Shown piece after piece: positions 5,537 to 18,408 of a DNA stretch of 64,000 nucleotides. The position numbers and the translations under genes are program-made. Location of the stretch: positions 352,001-416,000 of the forward strand of contig CAWCAG010000005.1 of NCBI GenBank assembly GCA_963793425.1, given 5' to 3'. The notes below the pieces were generated by a model. It saw only the letters and a list, made by a program, of their open reading frames with translations, was not told the DNA's origin and made no database searches. This stretch comes from an uncultured cyanobacterium (GTDB lineage: Bacteria > Cyanobacteriota > Cyanobacteriia > Cyanobacteriales > CAWCAG01). The first letter of the stretch is position 1, and each line of letters starts with the position of its first letter.

Positions 5537-6991
5537 GTGATTTCTAAACAGGATTCTTCCTTAATTCTCGCTGCCCGTGGGGGCAATCTTAAGGAAGTAA
5601 AAATATTACTAAATCATAATGTTGATGTTGATGAGGAAGATAGAGACGGGACAACAGCTTTAATGTTCGCTTCCGGGCAAGGCTATACAGAAATAGTTTT
5701 GTTATTAATTCAAGAGGGGGCCAAAGTTAATCAACCTCGAAGACGCTATGGCTTAACAGCCTTGATGTTGGCAGCAGCAGCTAACCAGAAGGATGTGGTA
5801 GAGGTTTTACTGGGGGCTGGTGCAGAAGTTAACCAGGTTAATGATGATGGTACTCCTGCTTTGATGGTAGCGGCATACAAAGGTAATTTGGCTATTGTTC
5901 AAAAGCTATTGGCAGCAGGGGCAGAGGTTAATGTTAAAGATAAAGATGGAGATACTGCCCTTAATTTAGCTATTGTTCAAGGGAATGTCGGTATTGTCCA
6001 GGCTTTGTTAGCGAAAGGGGCTGAGCCTCAATTGGGGGGTAATGCTTTGAGTTTAGCAGTGGCAAGAGGTCACTTGGAGGTAGTTGAGGCTTTGTTGGAG
6101 TTCGGTATAGAAGCTACTCCTGGGGATCTACAAAAAGCTATTAGTATTAGTAACTCATCTTTAGCCCAACTACTAATTAATCACTGTGACGAGGTTAATT
6201 TTGTTAACGACGAAGGGGAAACTTTGTTGATGACAGCAGCTAACCAAGGTAGGGTGGCTGTAGTGCAGAATTTACTCCAATTTGGGGCAGAAGTCAACAC
6301 GAGAACTCCTGAAGGGGAGACGGCTTTAATGGCAGGGGCAGCAGCAGGGGCAGCAGAGGCGATCGCAGCTTTATTAGCAGCAGGGGCAGAAGTTAATTGT
6401 CAAGATGATGACGGCGAAACAGCCCTACATTTTGGGGCAGTAGAAGGTTATCAAGCAGTATTAGCTACTCTAATTAAAGCTGGTGCAAATGTCAGTTTGA
6501 GAAATAATTTAGGAGATACAGCTTTAATGTTAGCTGCCTTACAAGGACATTCTCCGGCTGTAGAAACTTTAATAGCAGGGGGGGCAGATATTAATGGCAG
6601 TAACCAAAAAGAAACGCCTTTATCTTTAGCCGTATCTCAAGGCTGTACAAAGGTAGTAGATATCTTACTTAAAGCGGGGGTTGATGCTAATACCCGAATG
6701 CCAGATGGTAAAACAGTTTTGATGTTTGCCGCAGATCAAGGAGATATAGCAACAATGGAAAAGTTGCTTCAAGCTGATGCAAAGATAAATTTACGGGACA
6801 CAGCAGGGGCTACGGCTTTAATGTGGGCAGCCCATCGCGGTAATATTCAAGCTGTTGAGATGTTGCTGAAGGTAGAAACAATAGAATTAAACTGTGAAAA
6901 CCAGGGTGGCTATACCGCAACTATGCTTGCTCAGTTTAATGGTTATGAGGATGTGGTAGAGTTACTGAAAAAAGCTGGAACAAAGGAATAG
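5537..6991 (+). CDS. Ankyrin repeat protein
   Basis: Many G.TALM.AA..G....V..LL..GA.VN repeats. Confidence 0.95.
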   Translation: MISKQDSSLILAARGGNLKEVKILLNHNVDVDEEDRDGTTALMFASGQGYTEIVLLLIQEGAKVNQPRRRYGLTALMLAAAANQKDVVEVLLGAGAEVNQVNDDGTPALMVAAYKGNLAIVQKLLAAGAEVNVKDKDGDTALNLAIVQGNVGIVQALLAKGAEPQLGGNALSLAVARGHLEVVEALLEFGIEATPGDLQKAISISNSSLAQLLINHCDEVNFVNDEGETLLMTAANQGRVAVVQNLLQFGAEVNTRTPEGETALMAGAAAGAAEAIAALLAAGAEVNCQDDDGETALHFGAVEGYQAVLATLIKAGANVSLRNNLGDTALMLAALQGHSPAVETLIAGGADINGSNQKETPLSLAVSQGCTKVVDILLKAGVDANTRMPDGKTVLMFAADQGDIATMEKLLQADAKINLRDTAGATALMWAAHRGNIQAVEMLLKVETIELNCENQGGYTATMLAQFNGYEDVVELLKKAGTKE

Positions 6992-7112
6992 TATAGTTGT
7001 TCTAAATAAGAATGAGACACTTTAAGCTGCATTAGAAACCTGTATTAATTGATTCGCGTGTCAGTGTGAGAGATAAGCTTCATGCCCATCTCTTTTTTTA
7101 AGGCAATTTTTA

Positions 7113-7133
7113 GTATAATGATTATCATTATCA
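7113..7133 (+). promoter_or_regulatory. Zur/Fur-type operator overlapping TATAAT
   Basis: gTATAATGATTATCATTATCA resembles the TGATAATNATTATCA 7-1-7 box. Confidence 0.7.
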
Positions 7134-7145
7134 GAAAACCTGCTT

Positions 7146-7898
7146 ATGATTATTGCTGTCGCCAGTCCCCCAGGTGAGGGTAAAACCCACTGGATTCATC
7201 AACAAATAGCCCAAGTCAATGAACCTGTAGGCTATTTCAGCCCTCAAACCGATTCGCTACCCATCGATGTAGTATATTTGCAAAGTGAATATCCCCAACT
7301 CAAGCTTTATCAGACAGGGGAAGAGGCAGCATTAAATAACACCATCACTTATGTTGAAATTCCTTGGTATCTAGATTTAGCGGGAATTGAACCTTTACTG
7401 CAAACTTTTAACTCCCATCGAGTAGCCATAATTCCAGAAGATAACGATAGTACAGAATTAGAGACTTGGGCGGATGAAGTTATTCCAGGAAATAACATCA
7501 CTAAGCCAACTATAGCTTTGCAGATTCATCGGGGGGTTTTGACCGGGGAAATTTTAGATTTCGACAGTCTGGCTACTTTTTGGTTGGAACTTACCCAAGG
7601 TGCTTACGGTGAGGTAGTTCGGGCCAAGGGAATTTTCGATTTAGTGGACGGACAAATTTATTATGGTGACTTTAGATCGGGGAAATCGGAATTAGCATTT
7701 AAACCCTTAAATTTACCCCGTTGGTTAAATGGTAAACCAGATCGCAAGAGTGGTTTTGAAATAGTGGGTAGTAACTTAGATAAGGCTGAAATTGCCCAAA
7801 CCATCCGAGATTGCTGTGTTCCCGAATCGGCAATTAATTATTACCAACAACAAGTAAAAGAGTCTTTAGAAAGTGAACCAGAGGTAGAATTGGTATGA
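7146..7898 (+). CDS. Degenerate COG0523/CobW-like protein with CobW_C-type domain
   Basis: SPPGEGKT Walker-A-like motif; GAYGEVVRAKGIF typical of the CobW C-terminus; operator upstream. Confidence 0.7.
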   Translation: MIIAVASPPGEGKTHWIHQQIAQVNEPVGYFSPQTDSLPIDVVYLQSEYPQLKLYQTGEEAALNNTITYVEIPWYLDLAGIEPLLQTFNSHRVAIIPEDNDSTELETWADEVIPGNNITKPTIALQIHRGVLTGEILDFDSLATFWLELTQGAYGEVVRAKGIFDLVDGQIYYGDFRSGKSELAFKPLNLPRWLNGKPDRKSGFEIVGSNLDKAEIAQTIRDCCVPESAINYYQQQVKESLESEPEVELV

Positions 7899-8710
7899 AA
7901 ATAGCAGTAATGTCTTGTATACATGGTAATTACGCAGCTTTAGATGCTGTTTTACTAGATATTGACCAACAAAAAGCTGAAAAGATTTATTGTCTGGGGG
8001 ATTTAGTGGGTTATGGTCCTTATCCCAATGCGGTAGTCGAACAAATTCGTTCTTTAGATATCCCCACTGTACAGGGTTGTTGGGATGAAGATGTTGTCGA
8101 AGGACTAAATGCCTGTGAATGTAGTTATCCTTCCCTGTTAGCGGAAAAAAGAGGTAAGATCGCCCACGAATGGACAAATAAGCAGGTCAATCCCGAAGTT
8201 AGGGAATATTTGGCACAACTACCCCATACCTATAAAGAAGATAATCTCTGTTTTGCACATGGTAGTCCGAGTAGCAACCACGAATATTTATTACCCGAAA
8301 TGGATGCTTTTACTGCTTTAGAAAGAGTCCTCTCCAGTGATGCAGATATATTATTTTGCGGACATACCCACGTTCCCTATGTTCGTACCCTAGATTCTGG
8401 ACAATTACAGGTAAGCGTTCATCAACCTAACCAAAACGAACAACCTACTGTTAGTTTTAATACTCCCCTGAAGCGAATTATCAATGTGGGTTCGGTAGGC
8501 GAACCCCGTCATGGTCGTCCTAATGCTACCTATGTGATATATGATACGGAGACAGAAGCAGTAAACTTGCGAGAAGTAGAGTATGACTATCAAGCAACCT
8601 GCGCTGCGATATTAGATGCTGGTTTACCGTCGATTTTCGCTTGGCGTTTGGCTAGGGGTTTGGAATTTGCTGAAAAAGCGGACGATCCGACTCATGTTTG
8701 TGAGAGGTAA
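7895..8710 (+). CDS. Metallophosphoesterase family protein
   Basis: SCIHGN, CLGDLVGYGP, AHGSP, CGHTHVP, NVGSVGEPR; ATGA overlap with upstream gene. Confidence 0.9.
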   Translation: MKIAVMSCIHGNYAALDAVLLDIDQQKAEKIYCLGDLVGYGPYPNAVVEQIRSLDIPTVQGCWDEDVVEGLNACECSYPSLLAEKRGKIAHEWTNKQVNPEVREYLAQLPHTYKEDNLCFAHGSPSSNHEYLLPEMDAFTALERVLSSDADILFCGHTHVPYVRTLDSGQLQVSVHQPNQNEQPTVSFNTPLKRIINVGSVGEPRHGRPNATYVIYDTETEAVNLREVEYDYQATCAAILDAGLPSIFAWRLARGLEFAEKADDPTHVCER

Positions 8711-13576: not shown

Positions 13577-14788
13577 GTGAAATTACCTGGCTATATAGAC
13601 CTAGCAATTGTTGGTGCAGGAGTTCAGGCTCTAACTTTAACCACCCACCTCTTGCAAAAAAGTGCGAAGCATTATTCTAAAGTCCTGGTTTTCGATCCTA
13701 CTCAAACTTGGCTGAGTCAATGGCAACAACAATTTGCAGCACAACAGATTCCTTACTTACGATCACCTGCGGTTCATCATCCCGATCCCGACTCCTATCA
13801 ATTGAGGGCTTTTGCCGAACATAGGCGTAACGAATTTTTTCCTCCCTATGATAGACCAGGAACAAAGCTATTTAATGATTTCTGTCATGAAGTAATTCAT
13901 CGCTGGAAATTGGCAGATAAGGTTTATCCTGCCCAAGTAATCCAGATTCTACCGATTGAACTTGCTTCTCGTTCTCGATTTCAATTGGTTTTAAATACGG
14001 GAGAAACGATTATTGCCCGTAGAGTGGTACTAGCTACTGGAAGTGGCAAAGTGCAGTTTCCTAATTGGGTAGAAAGCATTACCTCAGATTATCCGTTAGA
14101 TAAATTGTGTCATTCTCAACAGGTAAACTTAAACCAACTTAACCTAACAGGAGAAAGGATTTTAATCGTTGGTGGTGGTTTAACTAGCGGGCATTTAACC
14201 AAAGGTGCGATAAATTTGGGTGCTACTGTTACCTTGATGACCAGAAAACAGTTACAATCAAAAATCTTCGATGCCGACCCTGGTTGGTTAGGGCCAAAAT
14301 ATCTCAAAGACTTTCACGCCGAAACCGATTGGCATGAGCGTTACCAGCAAATACAGCAAGCCCGTAATGGGGGTTCGATAACTCCCGAAATGATGCTGCA
14401 ATTAAGAAAAGCATCTCGTGAAGGTAAGGTGAGGATCGATGAATGCTGTCAAGTCAGCGAAGCACATTGGCAAAATGATCTTTGGCAAGTTTGTTGTCAC
14501 GATGGTAGCAAGCATCAGTTTAACCGTATTTGGTTAGCTACTGGTACGAGATTCAATGTCACAGAGCATCCGTTATTACAAAACGTACTAAATGCTTATC
14601 CAACAGAAATAGTCAACGGCTTACCCGTACTAGATGAACATTTACGTCTGCCCAAGTCCAACTTTTTCATTATGGGTGGTTTAGCCGCTTTGCAAATTGG
14701 TCCTGTTGCCAGAAATATTGGCGGTGGGAAAATGGCTTGTCAACGCATTGTGCCAGCGATTGTTAAACCTAGTTTGGCGATCGCTTGA
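13577..14788 (+). CDS. FAD/NAD(P)-binding oxidoreductase (N-hydroxylase/monooxygenase-like)
   Basis: IVGAGVQ, LRSP, LATG, IVGGGLTSG, second LATG motifs. Confidence 0.8.
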   Translation: MKLPGYIDLAIVGAGVQALTLTTHLLQKSAKHYSKVLVFDPTQTWLSQWQQQFAAQQIPYLRSPAVHHPDPDSYQLRAFAEHRRNEFFPPYDRPGTKLFNDFCHEVIHRWKLADKVYPAQVIQILPIELASRSRFQLVLNTGETIIARRVVLATGSGKVQFPNWVESITSDYPLDKLCHSQQVNLNQLNLTGERILIVGGGLTSGHLTKGAINLGATVTLMTRKQLQSKIFDADPGWLGPKYLKDFHAETDWHERYQQIQQARNGGSITPEMMLQLRKASREGKVRIDECCQVSEAHWQNDLWQVCCHDGSKHQFNRIWLATGTRFNVTEHPLLQNVLNAYPTEIVNGLPVLDEHLRLPKSNFFIMGGLAALQIGPVARNIGGGKMACQRIVPAIVKPSLAIA

Positions 14789-14895
14789 TGTTTTTGTTAG
14801 AGAAGCGATCGCGCTTTCTAACCTACTTGACACCAACTAGCACCACAATAACTATTTTGTTAGTAGGCAAAAGTCTAGTTAATAAGAAGAAATAT

Positions 14896-15375
14896 TCAAT
14901 GGGTAATCTCTACTATTTTCTCTTGCCCATCTATAGAGAAAATTGCTATGCTATCCCAACCCGACCGTACATCAGCCAAACAACAAATACTAGCAACTTT
15001 TAAGCTTCCTAATTCTACTACTCCAACTCGACCTAAATAATGGCAATTTTTTACCAGTTTACCTCCTTGGGATATTTGTTCTAAGAATCCGTAAGGTTCA
15101 TGGTTGCCACCAATAAACCATATAGGCCAGGGAAAGCTAACTTGTTCGTGAAAGAAATCTGGAAAATTGCCTAGCTTCCGGTACTTTGAGGGTGCAGCCA
15201 TAGTAGACAAATCTGCTTCGTGACGATGAGGCTCAAAGTCACCAACTTGTAAAATAAATTCCAAATTTCTCCCTGTTTTTGCTTCCCAAGAGTGCAATAA
15301 GTTGACCATTTTGTAGAAATGTCCATGAACATCCCCAACGGCGGCAAAGAAGCGTTTTGATTCTTTTGTAGCCAT
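14896..15375 (-). pseudogene. Dbr1-like metallophosphoesterase, internally deleted
   Basis: GDVHG, [39 protein letters not shown]; later His motifs of the fold absent. Confidence 0.65.
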
Positions 15376-15476
15376 TTTATTTAAAATTATTCAAGCAAAA
15401 AGGAGATTAAAGAGGTTTTAGTCTTAATTTAAGTGTAAATTTTATTTATACAGAGTTTAAATCTATTTTTGCCAGT

Positions 15477-15873
15477 ATGGATAAACTAAACATGGCTGCC
15501 CAGGCACGGGACTTTATGAAGCAAAGCCCCTATGGAGTGTCCCATTTCCATGATAAGGAAGTAATGCTTTTGCCAACGGTTTTTCCTCCAGATACTAATA
15601 CGCCTTTGTTGGCTGAGATAATTTCAGGGCTAGCTGAAAAAATGCTAGCAACTAAGGATACCTGTCGTGTTTATGAGATGGGGGCAGGTAGTGGGGCAGC
15701 TATAGTGTACGTGGCACAAAATCCCCAAGTCCAAGCTTTTGCTTCTGATATTTCACCTATGGCGGCGTTGAATATCAAGGTGAATGCTCTTTGGTGGGGG
15801 GGTAGATTGTCAAGTTTACGAAGGAAGTGTTTACGAAAATACCCCAAAAGGAGAAGAGTATGACCTCATTTAG
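15477..15873 (+). pseudogene. Class I SAM-dependent methyltransferase (HemK-like), frameshifted and truncated
   Basis: VFPP, EMGAGSG, SDIS; G7 run at 15796-15802; alternative frame continues VDCQVYEGSVYEN...YDLI then stops. Confidence 0.7.
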
Positions 15874-16037: not shown

Positions 16038-17504
16038 ATGTCAGCTAAACTAGTTGCAATTGGTGATAGCCTTACTCAAGGTTTCCTGAGTGGAAGTGTT
16101 CACAAAACCGAGTTTTCTTTCCCGGCTATGGTCGCTGAGAGCCTTTCAGCCGAAGAGTTTCGGCTTCCAAATTTTAGTGGTGAGGGGGGCTTACCTATCA
16201 ATCTTGAGAAACTGCTGAGGTTATTGGTAGAAAGATATGGTTCTAAGGTAAATTGGACAGATGTTGTTCCTGCTGCTTTAAGCGCTCGGAGTTTGTTAGA
16301 CAGAGTTGAGGATTATTGGGAAAGGGGAGCAGGAAGTCGTGCTTCAGCTACAGGGCCTTTGCACCACAACCTGGCTACATTTAGCCTATTGTTAGGAGAC
16401 TGCGACAAACTTACAGAAGCTATTTGTCGTCGCGCTTTGCCCGAACCGAAAGATGATTTTATTAATCAAATTCCTGAATCAGCAATGTATCGTGCGGCGA
16501 GGAGGACGTTGAATCCTAGCTTCGCCCCAGAATATGCTCATTTATCTCCCTTAGAAGCAGCAAAGGCGATCGCACGACAGGAAGGCGGAATTGATAACCT
16601 GATTTTTTGGTTAGGGGCAAATAATTGTCTTAGTACCGTAACTAATTTAGAAATTTATTGGTCTACTTCAGAAGAGTTAAATCTTTTACCTCACCAAAGA
16701 CAAGAACAAAAACTTAAAACTAATTTATGGCGACCAGAACATTTTCAAAAAGCGTTAGAGGGTATTGCTCCTAAAATTACAGCCATAGGAGCTAAAAACG
16801 TCTTTATTGCTACTATTCCCCACATTACAATTCCCCCCATAAGTCGCGGGGTAACACCCGGTAAAAAAGGTGAGGCAGCCCTTAGCAGCGATGGTTACTA
16901 CGAGTGTTATACTCATTTTTGGATTTGGGATGATGATTTTTCTCGCGCACCAGAGCGCTATCCTTATTTAACCCGCGAAGATGCTCGTACTATCGACTCT
17001 ACTATTGATGAATACAACCAACTACTACGGCAAGAGGCTCAAAAGCAAGGTTGGCAGATTGTTGATATTTGTACCATGTTGGATAACTTAGCTTTCCGTC
17101 GTCAGGGAGGAGATGTTTTATATCAGTTTCCTCCCGAATTAGTTGAAGCGATTCGTACCAATCCTCAAACTCAAAATCGCCTAAGCCCCCAAGGACAACC
17201 TTTAATTGATACCCGCTTTATTCATATAGATCCTAATGCTTCTGAGACAACGGCAAGATTTGAAGGAGGACTGTTTAGCCTGGATGGTTTTCATCCTACT
17301 ACCATCGGTTATGGCTTAGTCGCTTACGAATTCTGGCAAGTCATGTCAAAAGTAATTCCCACCAAACCCTTGAATTGGCAAAGGATTGTTGCTGCTGATA
17401 CCCTCTTAACTCAGCCCCCAGCAAATTTAGAGAACCTACAAAGTACTCTTGGTTTCCTTTACCACCGTACGCCATTGCGTCAGTTAATTGAAAGGTTAGG
17501 TTAA
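16038..17504 (+). CDS. SGNH/GDSL-type hydrolase
   Basis: AIGDSLTQG, LGANN, FSLDGFHPT blocks. Confidence 0.75.
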   Translation: MSAKLVAIGDSLTQGFLSGSVHKTEFSFPAMVAESLSAEEFRLPNFSGEGGLPINLEKLLRLLVERYGSKVNWTDVVPAALSARSLLDRVEDYWERGAGSRASATGPLHHNLATFSLLLGDCDKLTEAICRRALPEPKDDFINQIPESAMYRAARRTLNPSFAPEYAHLSPLEAAKAIARQEGGIDNLIFWLGANNCLSTVTNLEIYWSTSEELNLLPHQRQEQKLKTNLWRPEHFQKALEGIAPKITAIGAKNVFIATIPHITIPPISRGVTPGKKGEAALSSDGYYECYTHFWIWDDDFSRAPERYPYLTREDARTIDSTIDEYNQLLRQEAQKQGWQIVDICTMLDNLAFRRQGGDVLYQFPPELVEAIRTNPQTQNRLSPQGQPLIDTRFIHIDPNASETTARFEGGLFSLDGFHPTTIGYGLVAYEFWQVMSKVIPTKPLNWQRIVAADTLLTQPPANLENLQSTLGFLYHRTPLRQLIERLG

Positions 17505-17520
17505 GATTATTGAGCATTGC

Positions 17521-18408
17521 TTAAGCTACTTTTTCTAATTGCCAAAGAATTTGGTTTCCTTCCCGCCTGACTCGTGAAACGAGCCAATTTCGCCAAGGCC
17601 AATTATCTCCCCTGCTAGTAACGGCACTGGCATTTACGTCCATTAAATCAGCTAGTTCAGCACTGCTGATTAAATAACCTTTAGTTGATATTTCTTCAGC
17701 AATACGTAAGGTTTCGATTAAGTTTTGTAGGTTAGTAACTCTGACCTCACGGGGAAGTTGAAATTCTTCTGTTGTACCAGCAGATGATTCCATCATGTTT
17801 ATATCTGAATTAGATGAGTTAGTTTGCTTATCCCTGTAAAGTATCTTTGCTCTACCCTTTGAGTCTGATAACCCTGTTACCGAGAGGGGATCAAATTGAG
17901 CAAAATTTTCTGCATTTTCTGCCAGCAAAGGAGAATATTTTTGTTGGAGAGATACAGAACTGCCTTGGGCAAAACCACGGGCGATCGCATCGCAACGTTC
18001 ATTACCTTCATTACCACTATGACCCTTAACGTGTTTCCAGATCACTTGCTCAGAGTTTAACTGATCTAGTTTTTCCCAAAGGTCTTGATTTTGTACAGGT
18101 TTGCCTTGAGAATTTTGCCAACCCTTTTTTTTCCAGCCTTTAATCCACTGAGTTATACCTTTGCGGACATACTCACTATCTGTGTAGATGGTAGCGGTTT
18201 CAGTTTGCTCACAAGCTCGTAAAATTTTTAAAGCTGAAACCGCAGCTTCCATTTCCATACGATTATTAGTGGTTTGAGCCGCGCTACCACCCATTTCAAA
18301 TACTGAATTATCTGTAAAATAGACTACAACTCCCCAACCTCCTGGGCCAGGATTACCTGTACAAGCTCCATCAGTATAAAGACTTTCGATTATTCGAGAA
18401 GATTCCAT
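17521..18408 (-). CDS. rnhA: Ribonuclease HI with cyanobacterial C-terminal extension
   Basis: YTDGACTGNPGPGG, TNNRME, TDSEYV, VKGHSG..GNERCD. Confidence 0.93.
   Translation of the reverse strand: MESSRIIESLYTDGACTGNPGPGGWGVVVYFTDNSVFEMGGSAAQTTNNRMEMEAAVSALKILRACEQTETATIYTDSEYVRKGITQWIKGWKKKGWQNSQGKPVQNQDLWEKLDQLNSEQVIWKHVKGHSGNEGNERCDAIARGFAQGSSVSLQQKYSPLLAENAENFAQFDPLSVTGLSDSKGRAKILYRDKQTNSSNSDINMMESSAGTTEEFQLPREVRVTNLQNLIETLRIAEEISTKGYLISSAELADLMDVNASAVTSRGDNWPWRNWLVSRVRREGNQILWQLEKVA

Follow-up and report, generated by a model that had tools for sequence, protein, structure and literature searches.

The question raised by the locus described here is whether Bacteria possess a counterpart of Dbr1, the enzyme that debranches RNA lariats, and what has become of it in one cyanobacterial genome. 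The locus is a short open reading frame (ORF) at positions 14896..15375 of the window, by which we mean the whole analysed stretch of 64,000 nucleotides from an uncultured cyanobacterium (GCA_963793425.1, contig CAWCAG010000005.1, positions 352,001 to 416,000). The original prediction, made from the sequence alone, had described this ORF as a bacterial homolog of Dbr1 that has suffered a deletion. In our view it is, with a probability of about 0.85, a recently truncated and almost certainly inactive allele of a stand-alone enzyme of the Dbr1 branch, which comprises Dbr1 and CWF19L1.

Bacteria form 2'-5' branches in the lariats of group II introns and in the multicopy single-stranded DNA (msDNA) of retrons. 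In passages of two articles Dbr1 is treated as eukaryotic and described as the one known enzyme by which 2'-5' branch bonds are hydrolysed (PMC9202583, PMC10470207). No paper on bacterial Dbr1 homologs or on a dedicated bacterial debranching enzyme was found in the main texts of the open-access literature and of bioRxiv preprints, and bacterial homologs are not mentioned in the portions of PMC4524724, PMC8266578 and PMC12238851 at hand. A sizeable bacterial family in which the substrate-recognition loop of Dbr1 is kept makes the debranching question testable with one purified protein. This significance is tempered by the broken state of the window copy and by the label 'lariat debranching enzyme' that JGI already gives to relatives.

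The open reading frame and its similarity to Dbr1

The source genome (5.28 Mb, nine contigs) contains a single copy of the gene. Its features are as follows; P0121 and P0049 are two homologs described further below.

14896..15375, minus strand: whole ORF, from the ATG start over 159 codons to the TGA stop; Dbr1-like metallophosphoesterase gene in its in-frame-deleted form
14995..15375, minus strand: codons 1-127, which encode the N-terminal half of the metallophosphoesterase domain, protein identical to the intact P0121; Tyr65 lies within it
15322-15336, minus strand: motif I, GDVHG, codons 14-18
15238-15240, minus strand: motif II, GD, Asp46
15097-15108, minus strand: motif III, GNHE, codons 90-93
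14992..14994, minus strand: hybrid junction codon GCT, Ala128, placed by the sequence, by contig joints and by protein alignment
14899..14991, minus strand: codons 129-159 (SICCLADVRSGWDSIAIFSIDGQEKIVEITH), last beta-strands of the family domain, corresponding to residues 245-275 of P0049

Both peptides quoted in the original prediction were recovered in this ORF, and its remark that the first ligand is Asp rather than Cys is correct, as motif I reads GDVHG with Asp at the position of the Dbr1 Cys. The counterparts of the stacking pair His16/Tyr64 of Dbr1, His17 and Tyr65, are both kept. When the window protein was compared with all PDB chains by phmmer, the best match was Dbr1 of Entamoeba histolytica (E 4.9e-21), residues 2-131 being aligned to residues 4-132 of the Dbr1 chain; the other rows of this search comprised CWF19L1 only (E 0.23-0.27). 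The Pfam family Metallophos (PF00149) matched with profile positions 3-78 of 191 (E 2.5e-6), and a scan of the window protein against NCBIfam gave no match. From the five motifs of PF00149 (D-x-H, G-D, G-N-H-[ED], H and G-H-x-H) the window copy retains I-III only; motifs I-V are all present in intact relatives.

A profile of 31 full-length homologs matched Dbr1 in the PDB through its positions 5-235 of 276 (E 7.5e-49). The remaining rows at E<=0.01 were CWF19L1 only (5.9e-5 and 6.8e-4), and all seven distinct PDB sequences matched are Dbr1 or CWF19L1. An AlphaFold2 model of the full-length relative P0001 (predicted local distance difference test score, pLDDT, 93.3; predicted template modelling score, pTM, 0.92) gave the same order in Foldseek: ranks 1-9 were all Entamoeba Dbr1 with template modelling (TM) scores of 0.82-0.84 and 30-31% identity, followed by CWF19L1 (TM 0.63-0.69) and then by LpxH, Rv0805 and others (TM<=0.54). 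The metallophosphoesterase-like N-terminal domain of CWF19L1/Drn1 (8RO2_L1, 8RO1_L1) is therefore the second-closest solved relative, but with 17-18% identity it is much more distant than Dbr1, and it is part of a larger eukaryotic spliceosome-associated protein; an excerpt of PMC4105757 presents CWF19L1/Drn1 as a Dbr1 paralog that modulates debranching. Generic bacterial metallophosphoesterases such as LpxH, Rv0805, GpdQ and the Mre11 type share the calcineurin-like fold and motifs I-V (PF00149) with the family, but they show 10-16% identity and none reached E<=0.01 in the profile search of the PDB. The window protein thus belongs to the Dbr1 branch, with Dbr1 closest in sequence and fold, and the predicted homology beyond the generic metallophosphoesterase motifs is borne out by the window protein, the family profile and the structural model alike.

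An in-frame deletion

When the window protein was aligned by BLASTP with a 277-aa (amino acid) homolog, L002, two collinear segments were obtained. Residues 1-130 correspond to residues 1-130 of the L002 protein with 62% identity, and residues 120-151 correspond to residues 237-271 (E 4e-4). The event can be read more exactly from two closer relatives. P0121, a partial protein of 244 aa from a metagenome-assembled genome named 'Spirulinaceae cyanobacterium', matches the window protein without a difference in residues 1-127, after which it runs on with VGLSGIYKES... through a segment that is absent from the window protein. The full-length P0049 (275 aa) is 79% identical to the window protein, and its C-terminus NICCLANVQSGWDSVGIFSVDCQGTIAEIKH aligns with the last 31 residues of the latter; P0121 and the window tail, when joined, likewise amount to 275 residues.

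The window form is therefore short by 116 codons, with one Ala in place of residues 128-244. Positions 14994 and 14993 flank the breakpoint, so that the hybrid codon takes its G from the former Val128 codon and its CT from the former Thr244 codon. No microhomology was seen in the sequence at the junction. The lost segment contains the family-invariant residues S131, G132, H180, G208, N209, H228 and H230 (P0001 numbering). Functionally, it comprised the loop after the strand 'LKIVGxSG', which is the equivalent of the lariat recognition loop of Dbr1, as well as the His of motif IV and both His of motif V, which are the H180, H228 and H230 of the alignment. The protein has thereby lost three of its seven ligands for metal and catalysis, along with about one half of its beta-sandwich core. 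The alignment with P0121 and P0049, the two BLASTP segments and the bridging contigs described below agree with the earlier claim of an in-frame deletion after 'SLKV' with loss of the late His motifs. Because the loop, the motif IV His and both motif V His are deleted, the product is judged to be very probably inactive.

Intact and deleted alleles in metagenomes

The stretch was found in four sediment-metagenome runs of one study, which may include the source sample of the window itself; no RNA dataset was among those found to contain it. Contigs were compared over positions 14500-15800 of the window. The deleted form is bridged across the junction by record 16 of X2 (6702 nt, one differing letter) and by record 5 of X1. 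In addition, a contig of X4 matches from 14994 upward and then continues with 93 further letters, the coding strand of which begins ...VGLSGIYKES, and a contig of X1 matches up to 14993 and then continues with 68 further letters reading ...CLSWQTGQT-(T). These two loose ends, represented by one contig each, match the borders of the missing segment in P0121, and therefore intact and deleted alleles coexist. The deletion looks recent, a polymorphism, because contigs of one study carry both alleles. Furthermore, there is a hint of a third allele without the gene: a joint that skips 14911-15374, which is nearly the whole ORF, occurs in X1 (depth 2) and X3 (depth 12.9), its shorter side of 29 letters placing it in an unreliable class. 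The original prediction had not foreseen that the window copy would be one among several decaying alleles of its population.

Two other explanations of the short ORF have to be set against that of a dead remnant. The deletion might be an artefact of assembly in an organism which really has the intact gene; ends of the intact allele do occur in the same study, and runs that may include the source sample of the window are not independent of it. However, contigs from two different runs span the junction without a gap, no repeat able to cause a collapse is present there, and both loose ends that flank it are minority paths of one contig each, which leaves an artefact hardly credible. A functional short form of 159 aa, whether regulatory, metal-binding or dominant-negative, has in its favour that the reading frame is still open, with the original ATG and stop both kept and a deletion exactly in frame, a state that speaks against a dead remnant, and that the deleted allele is found on a long contig (6702 nt) at a depth similar to that of the flanks. 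Yet the short form lacks three invariant His ligands and about half the fold, and its first 127 residues are identical to those of the intact P0121 allele, which makes the event too recent to show selection. The intact allele coexists with the short one, the weak joint hints at an allele without the whole ORF, and the closest genomes do without the gene, so that a functional short form appears improbable.

Distribution of the family

The relatives of the window copy are stand-alone bacterial proteins of about 275-277 aa with Asp in motif I (Asp-type), with the recognition loop kept and without a C-terminal domain. Full-length examples are those of L002 (277 aa, named Oscillatoria salina through P0001) and L004 (279 aa). 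Among the known prokaryotic relatives of Dbr1, this bacterial Asp-type family is the closest. One search gave 506 proteins at E<=1e-5 among 1172 candidates, and an exhaustive search of representative sequences, eukaryotic Dbr1 included, gave 2711, 1197 and 504 clusters at E<=1e-3, 1e-10 and 1e-30, respectively. Species genomes were also scanned with a pattern; of its 201 matches 139 were confirmed as relatives, and 80 loci were kept. Most of these belong to Cyanobacteria, Myxococcota, Acidobacteriota and Abditibacteriota, with a few also from Bacteroidota, Gammaproteobacteria, Geobacter and Planctomycetota.

Few Cyanobacteria carry the gene, which occurs in two of 401 sampled genomes including the source genome, and in 4/41 among relatives. 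In the Myxococcales sample 38 of 121 genomes have a match, but only 12 contain a high-scoring ortholog of the window family (about 400-418 bits); most of the 38 positives are explained by a weaker paralog (about 129-180 bits). Large myxobacterial genomes carry both paralogs, for example at G422:C1:3348705-3349517 and G422:C1:3599376-3600128. NCBI names members of the family 'metallophosphoesterase' only, and JGI calls many relatives 'lariat debranching enzyme' and some 'Icc-related predicted phosphoesterase'.

Features shared with Dbr1 and features missing

Excerpts of PMC4176325 list three features as unique to Dbr1: Cys14, the lariat recognition loop and the C-terminal domain, a requirement in vivo. 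In canonical Dbr1 the loop is an insertion of about 28 aa that follows a strand with the end ...V-G-V-S-G-I-Y. The loop of Entamoeba Dbr1 spans residues 130-158, is centred on Arg158 and contacts the 3' arm through Ile132, Lys134, Phe136, Phe155 and His156, and the branchpoint adenine is sandwiched between His16 and Tyr64. The same excerpts call the Cys of motif I invariant in Dbr1 and report that C14A and C14S do not complement and that complementation by Entamoeba Dbr1 is abolished when the C-terminal domain is deleted (PMC4176325).

These positions were mapped via P0278, an Entamoeba construct, onto the 230 Asp-type proteins with a tail of less than 70 residues (out of 289 full-domain proteins), redundancy being kept. 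The first residue of motif I is Asp in 230/230 of them and Cys in 38/38 canonical proteins. The equivalent of His16 is likewise invariant (230/230) and that of Tyr64 is Tyr in 189. At the start of the loop Ser130 is found in 214, Gly131 in 219 and Ile132 in 203 of the proteins; the Phe136 position holds Phe (174) or Tyr (31) in 205 and the Arg158 position Lys (190) or Arg (15) in 205. No conservation was seen at the positions of Phe155 and His156. The loop has a median length of 26 residues in Asp-type and canonical Cys-type proteins alike. PF05011 was not found in P0001 or in the longer relatives P0177-P0186. The proteins of the family end within a few residues of the domain, and their only Pfam match is Metallophos; PF05011 was found in the Cys-type proteins P0284 and P0260, and weakly in P0296.

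According to these alignments one of the three Dbr1-unique features, the loop, is present in the family together with the stacking pair, and the two others are absent. Dbr1 (4PEH, 5K77) is its best match in sequence and structure, with GNHE and all metal ligands but the first identical, and with the loop insertion, its S-G-I-Y..F start, K/R at Arg158 and the equivalents of His16 and Tyr64 in common. The architecture differs: Dbr1 has Metallophos and PF05011 in 350-600 aa, whereas the bacterial family has about 277 aa, no PF05011 and Asp for Cys. The window copy in addition lacks the recognition loop and motifs IV and V.

An unrooted FastTree phylogeny without outgroup was calculated from 154 sequences. 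Eligible were 289 of 326 proteins, namely those that cover profile positions <=15 to >=230, and the input was thinned at 60% identity for the short Asp-type proteins and at 90% for the others. In it the 38 Cys-type proteins, together with P0278, are all united in a single clan that is separate from the Asp-type proteins (support 0.991).

Possible substrates of the intact enzyme

The original prediction had proposed a 2'-5' phosphodiesterase family, with group II lariats, retron msDNA or signalling nucleotides as possible targets. By analogy with Dbr1, the intact enzymes may hydrolyse phosphodiesters where a nucleotide is branched or linked 2'-5', a tentative reading to which we give slightly less than even odds. 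In such a reaction water would be activated by a two-metal site formed by Asp15, His17, Asp46, Asn91, His180, His228 and His230; the branch base would lie between His17 and Tyr65, and the 3' arm would be bound by the conserved S-G-I-Y-x-x-x-F...K loop. Group II intron lariats or retron msDNA would be the candidate substrates. The latter is chemically plausible because eukaryotic DBR1 cleaves the 2'-5' link of the RT-DNA of retrons (RT, reverse transcriptase) in vitro, as stated in an excerpt of PMC8989520.

Links to these substrates were sought in the gene neighbourhoods and genomes, a check that the original prediction had suggested for group II introns, retrons and CBASS (cyclic oligonucleotide-based antiphage signalling system). 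Immediate neighbours were scanned with Pfam, 142 of 146 being covered as the four largest were left out. By Pfam and a crude clustering, no neighbour family in this set was common beyond close kin. Some neighbours are restricted to lineages: a DEAD/DbpA helicase at six Myxococcus/Pyxidicoccus loci, Cu-oxidase_4 at four of Abditibacteria, UvrC at three, DUF2378 at three of Corallococcus and a methyltransferase at two. Others are singletons, such as an RNA ligase (L064, directly upstream), a group II intron RT (L019), ThsB-TIR, Macro and HipA. At the helicase loci (L029, L030, L035, L036, L046 and L080; about 6850-8700 in each) a DeaD-type DEAD-box helicase with a DbpA RNA-binding domain lies directly downstream on the same strand, with a gap of roughly 50-210 bases in five of the six. 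A PLD-like protein of 918 aa precedes the Dbr1-like gene in most of these six loci. No CBASS-type protein was seen among the 142 flanking proteins. When eight RTs (group II, retron, RT-Cas1 and Drt8) were compared by tblastn with 82 loci (858,901 bases), the L019 locus was the only one with an RT within about 6 kb of the gene. The adjacency to RT or defence genes by which a retron, group II or defence operon would be recognised is thus lacking.

At the level of genomes, matches to GIIM and RF00029 were present in three of five genomes with the intact gene; neither was found in the two complete genomes of Corallococcus exercitus and Abditibacteriota IAD-21. These two do contain retron-type RTs (PADLOC RT_other, E 6.5e-167; RT_XIII, E 1.6e-149). 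The retron model also matched in G005 and Sorangium and gave no match in the gene-bearing G020, G025 and Aliterella. Some RT occurs in all eight genomes with the intact gene that were examined, which is uninformative because 82 of 121 sampled cyanobacterial genomes have one as well. In the Myxococcales sample of 121, 30 genomes combine a Dbr1-like gene with a retron-type RT, eight have the Dbr1-like gene only, seven the RT only and 76 neither; a retron-type RT is present in each of the 12 that contain the high-scoring ortholog. Strong as this association is, kinship confounds it: almost every double positive is a genome of 8.5-10.8 Mb, and these probably belong to one clade. The retron model also matches the controls B. 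thetaiotaomicron and M. acetivorans, both of which match the group II maturase model too, and a cross-matching to other RTs is possible.

The source genome itself has a retron type XIII RT at C5:1157880-1158521 (PADLOC RT_XIII, E 7.6e-192) and a single RF00029 match to group II domain V/VI at C6:11652-11729, with no GIIM maturase; it tolerates the broken gene despite both. Its other RTs are three RT-Cas1 fusions, one of the Drt8 type and one further, located at C6:51946-52566, C2:3927-4547, C8:30399-31019, C9:373253-373879 and C6:9489-10130.

Much of this tells against debranching: the want of a common neighbour and of RTs beside the gene, the gene-bearing genomes without group II or retron matches, the confounded association in Myxococcales and the possible cross-matching of the model behind it, the tolerance of the source genome, and the rarity of the gene in Cyanobacteria (2/401) though RTs are common there (82/121), besides the invariant Asp and the missing PF05011 reported above. 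The main rival is a generic role, in which the enzyme would be an ordinary phosphatase or phosphodiesterase with substrates such as cyclic nucleotides, nucleotides or other phosphoesters, and would share Dbr1 ancestry and the loop but have no branched substrate. It would explain why two of the three features listed as Dbr1-unique in the excerpts of PMC4176325 are missing, and it fits the absence of a conserved link to RTs, introns and defence genes, the patchy distribution and the names 'metallophosphoesterase' at NCBI and 'Icc-related predicted phosphoesterase' at JGI. It is harder to reconcile with a similarity that is specific to Dbr1 and CWF19L1 and separated by a large gap from other solved metallophosphoesterases, or with the conservation of the loop length, of the equivalents of Ile132, Phe136 and Arg158 (K/R) and of the His16/Tyr64 pair. 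We regard such a generic enzyme as quite possible, though below an even chance. Of the proposed 2'-5' phosphodiesterase, the loop insertion and the residues that stack on the branchpoint speak for it and the missing C-terminal domain and conserved neighbour do not; of the genomic links suggested for checking, a retron association confounded by kinship was recovered in Myxococcales, and adjacency, CBASS neighbours and group II introns in two genomes were not. The genomic context favours no particular substrate.

A wider proposal would make the Asp-type proteins both the missing bacterial debranching enzymes and the prokaryotic stock of eukaryotic Dbr1, in which Asp would have been exchanged for Cys and the C-terminal domain gained. 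They would cut the 2'-5' bonds in group II intron lariats, in retron msDNA or in both, recognising them by loop and stacking as Dbr1 does. This proposal we consider rather unlikely; if it were true, the window would show the loss of the enzyme in a population in nature where a retron and a group II intron are still present.

Genomic surroundings of the probable remnant

The genes around the Dbr1-like remnant are the following.

7895-8710, plus strand: second, unrelated metallophosphoesterase, 6 kb away (Metallophos_2, E 1.1e-21), taken as coincidental
13577-14788: FAD/NAD(P) (flavin adenine dinucleotide/nicotinamide adenine dinucleotide (phosphate)) oxidoreductase, flanking
15477-15863, plus strand: ORF resembling methyltransferases dependent on S-adenosylmethionine (SAM), divergent from the Dbr1-like gene and continuing to about 15870 in another frame
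16038-17504: GDSL hydrolase, flanking
17521-18408, minus strand: RNase H, 295 aa, 2 kb from the remnant, taken as coincidental
beyond RNase H: TrkH and TrkA

The flanking genes are ordinary and unrelated. The ORF at 15477-15863 has a SAM-motif start, and its Pfam matches are weak only (E 0.05-0.17). It is interrupted by a frameshift at a G run near 15797, after which the next frame reads ...VDCQVYEGSVYENTPKGEEYDLI and stops, and it has no C-terminal half, so that it is probably a second pseudogene. A link between the Dbr1-like gene and methyltransferases, which could be drawn from this neighbour and from the fusion proteins P0178-P0180, was rejected, since the fusions form one close group and since the methyltransferases of L045 and L057, the fusions and the ORF at 15477-15863 share a generic SAM motif only (E 0.002-0.5).

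A genome of the same genus (G001) has kept the GDSL and RNase H genes with 83% and 93% protein identity and has different genes upstream; one of the same family (G002) has kept the FAD gene alone, among different neighbours. A Dbr1-like match is absent from both. The Dbr1-like gene sits at a break of synteny in a variable, decaying stretch and is dispensable, because alleles coexist, the closest sampled genomes are without the gene and the adjacent ORF is frameshifted.

Unusual members of the family

Several relatives depart from the stand-alone form. P0178-P0180 (about 500-516 aa) combine the Dbr1-like domain with a C-terminal SAM-methyltransferase domain and are 66-70% identical to one another, and P0177 (757 aa) has an N-terminal extension of 480 aa without Pfam match. 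The metagenomic proteins P0240, P0241, P0243, P0246 and P0253 (415-457 aa) are of the Asp type and have a C-terminal tail of about 150-165 aa in which no PF05011 was detected at E<=0.01. In the tree they adjoin the canonical Cys-type clan, and they may be closer to eukaryotic Dbr1 than the family of the window copy. Finally, there are long Asp-type proteins (482-555 aa) with insertions, which are nested in the bacterial Asp-type part of the tree and of which the named ones are algal: P0245/P0328 (transcripts of Crypthecodinium cohnii), P0181 (EukProt), P0185, P0182, P0186 and P0250. P0185, a 'Lariat debranching enzyme' of Seminavis robusta, was outside the tree set, and PF05011 had no match in P0185 or P0245. 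Their sequences suggest either a transfer between Bacteria and algae or a second, algal lineage of Dbr1-like proteins.

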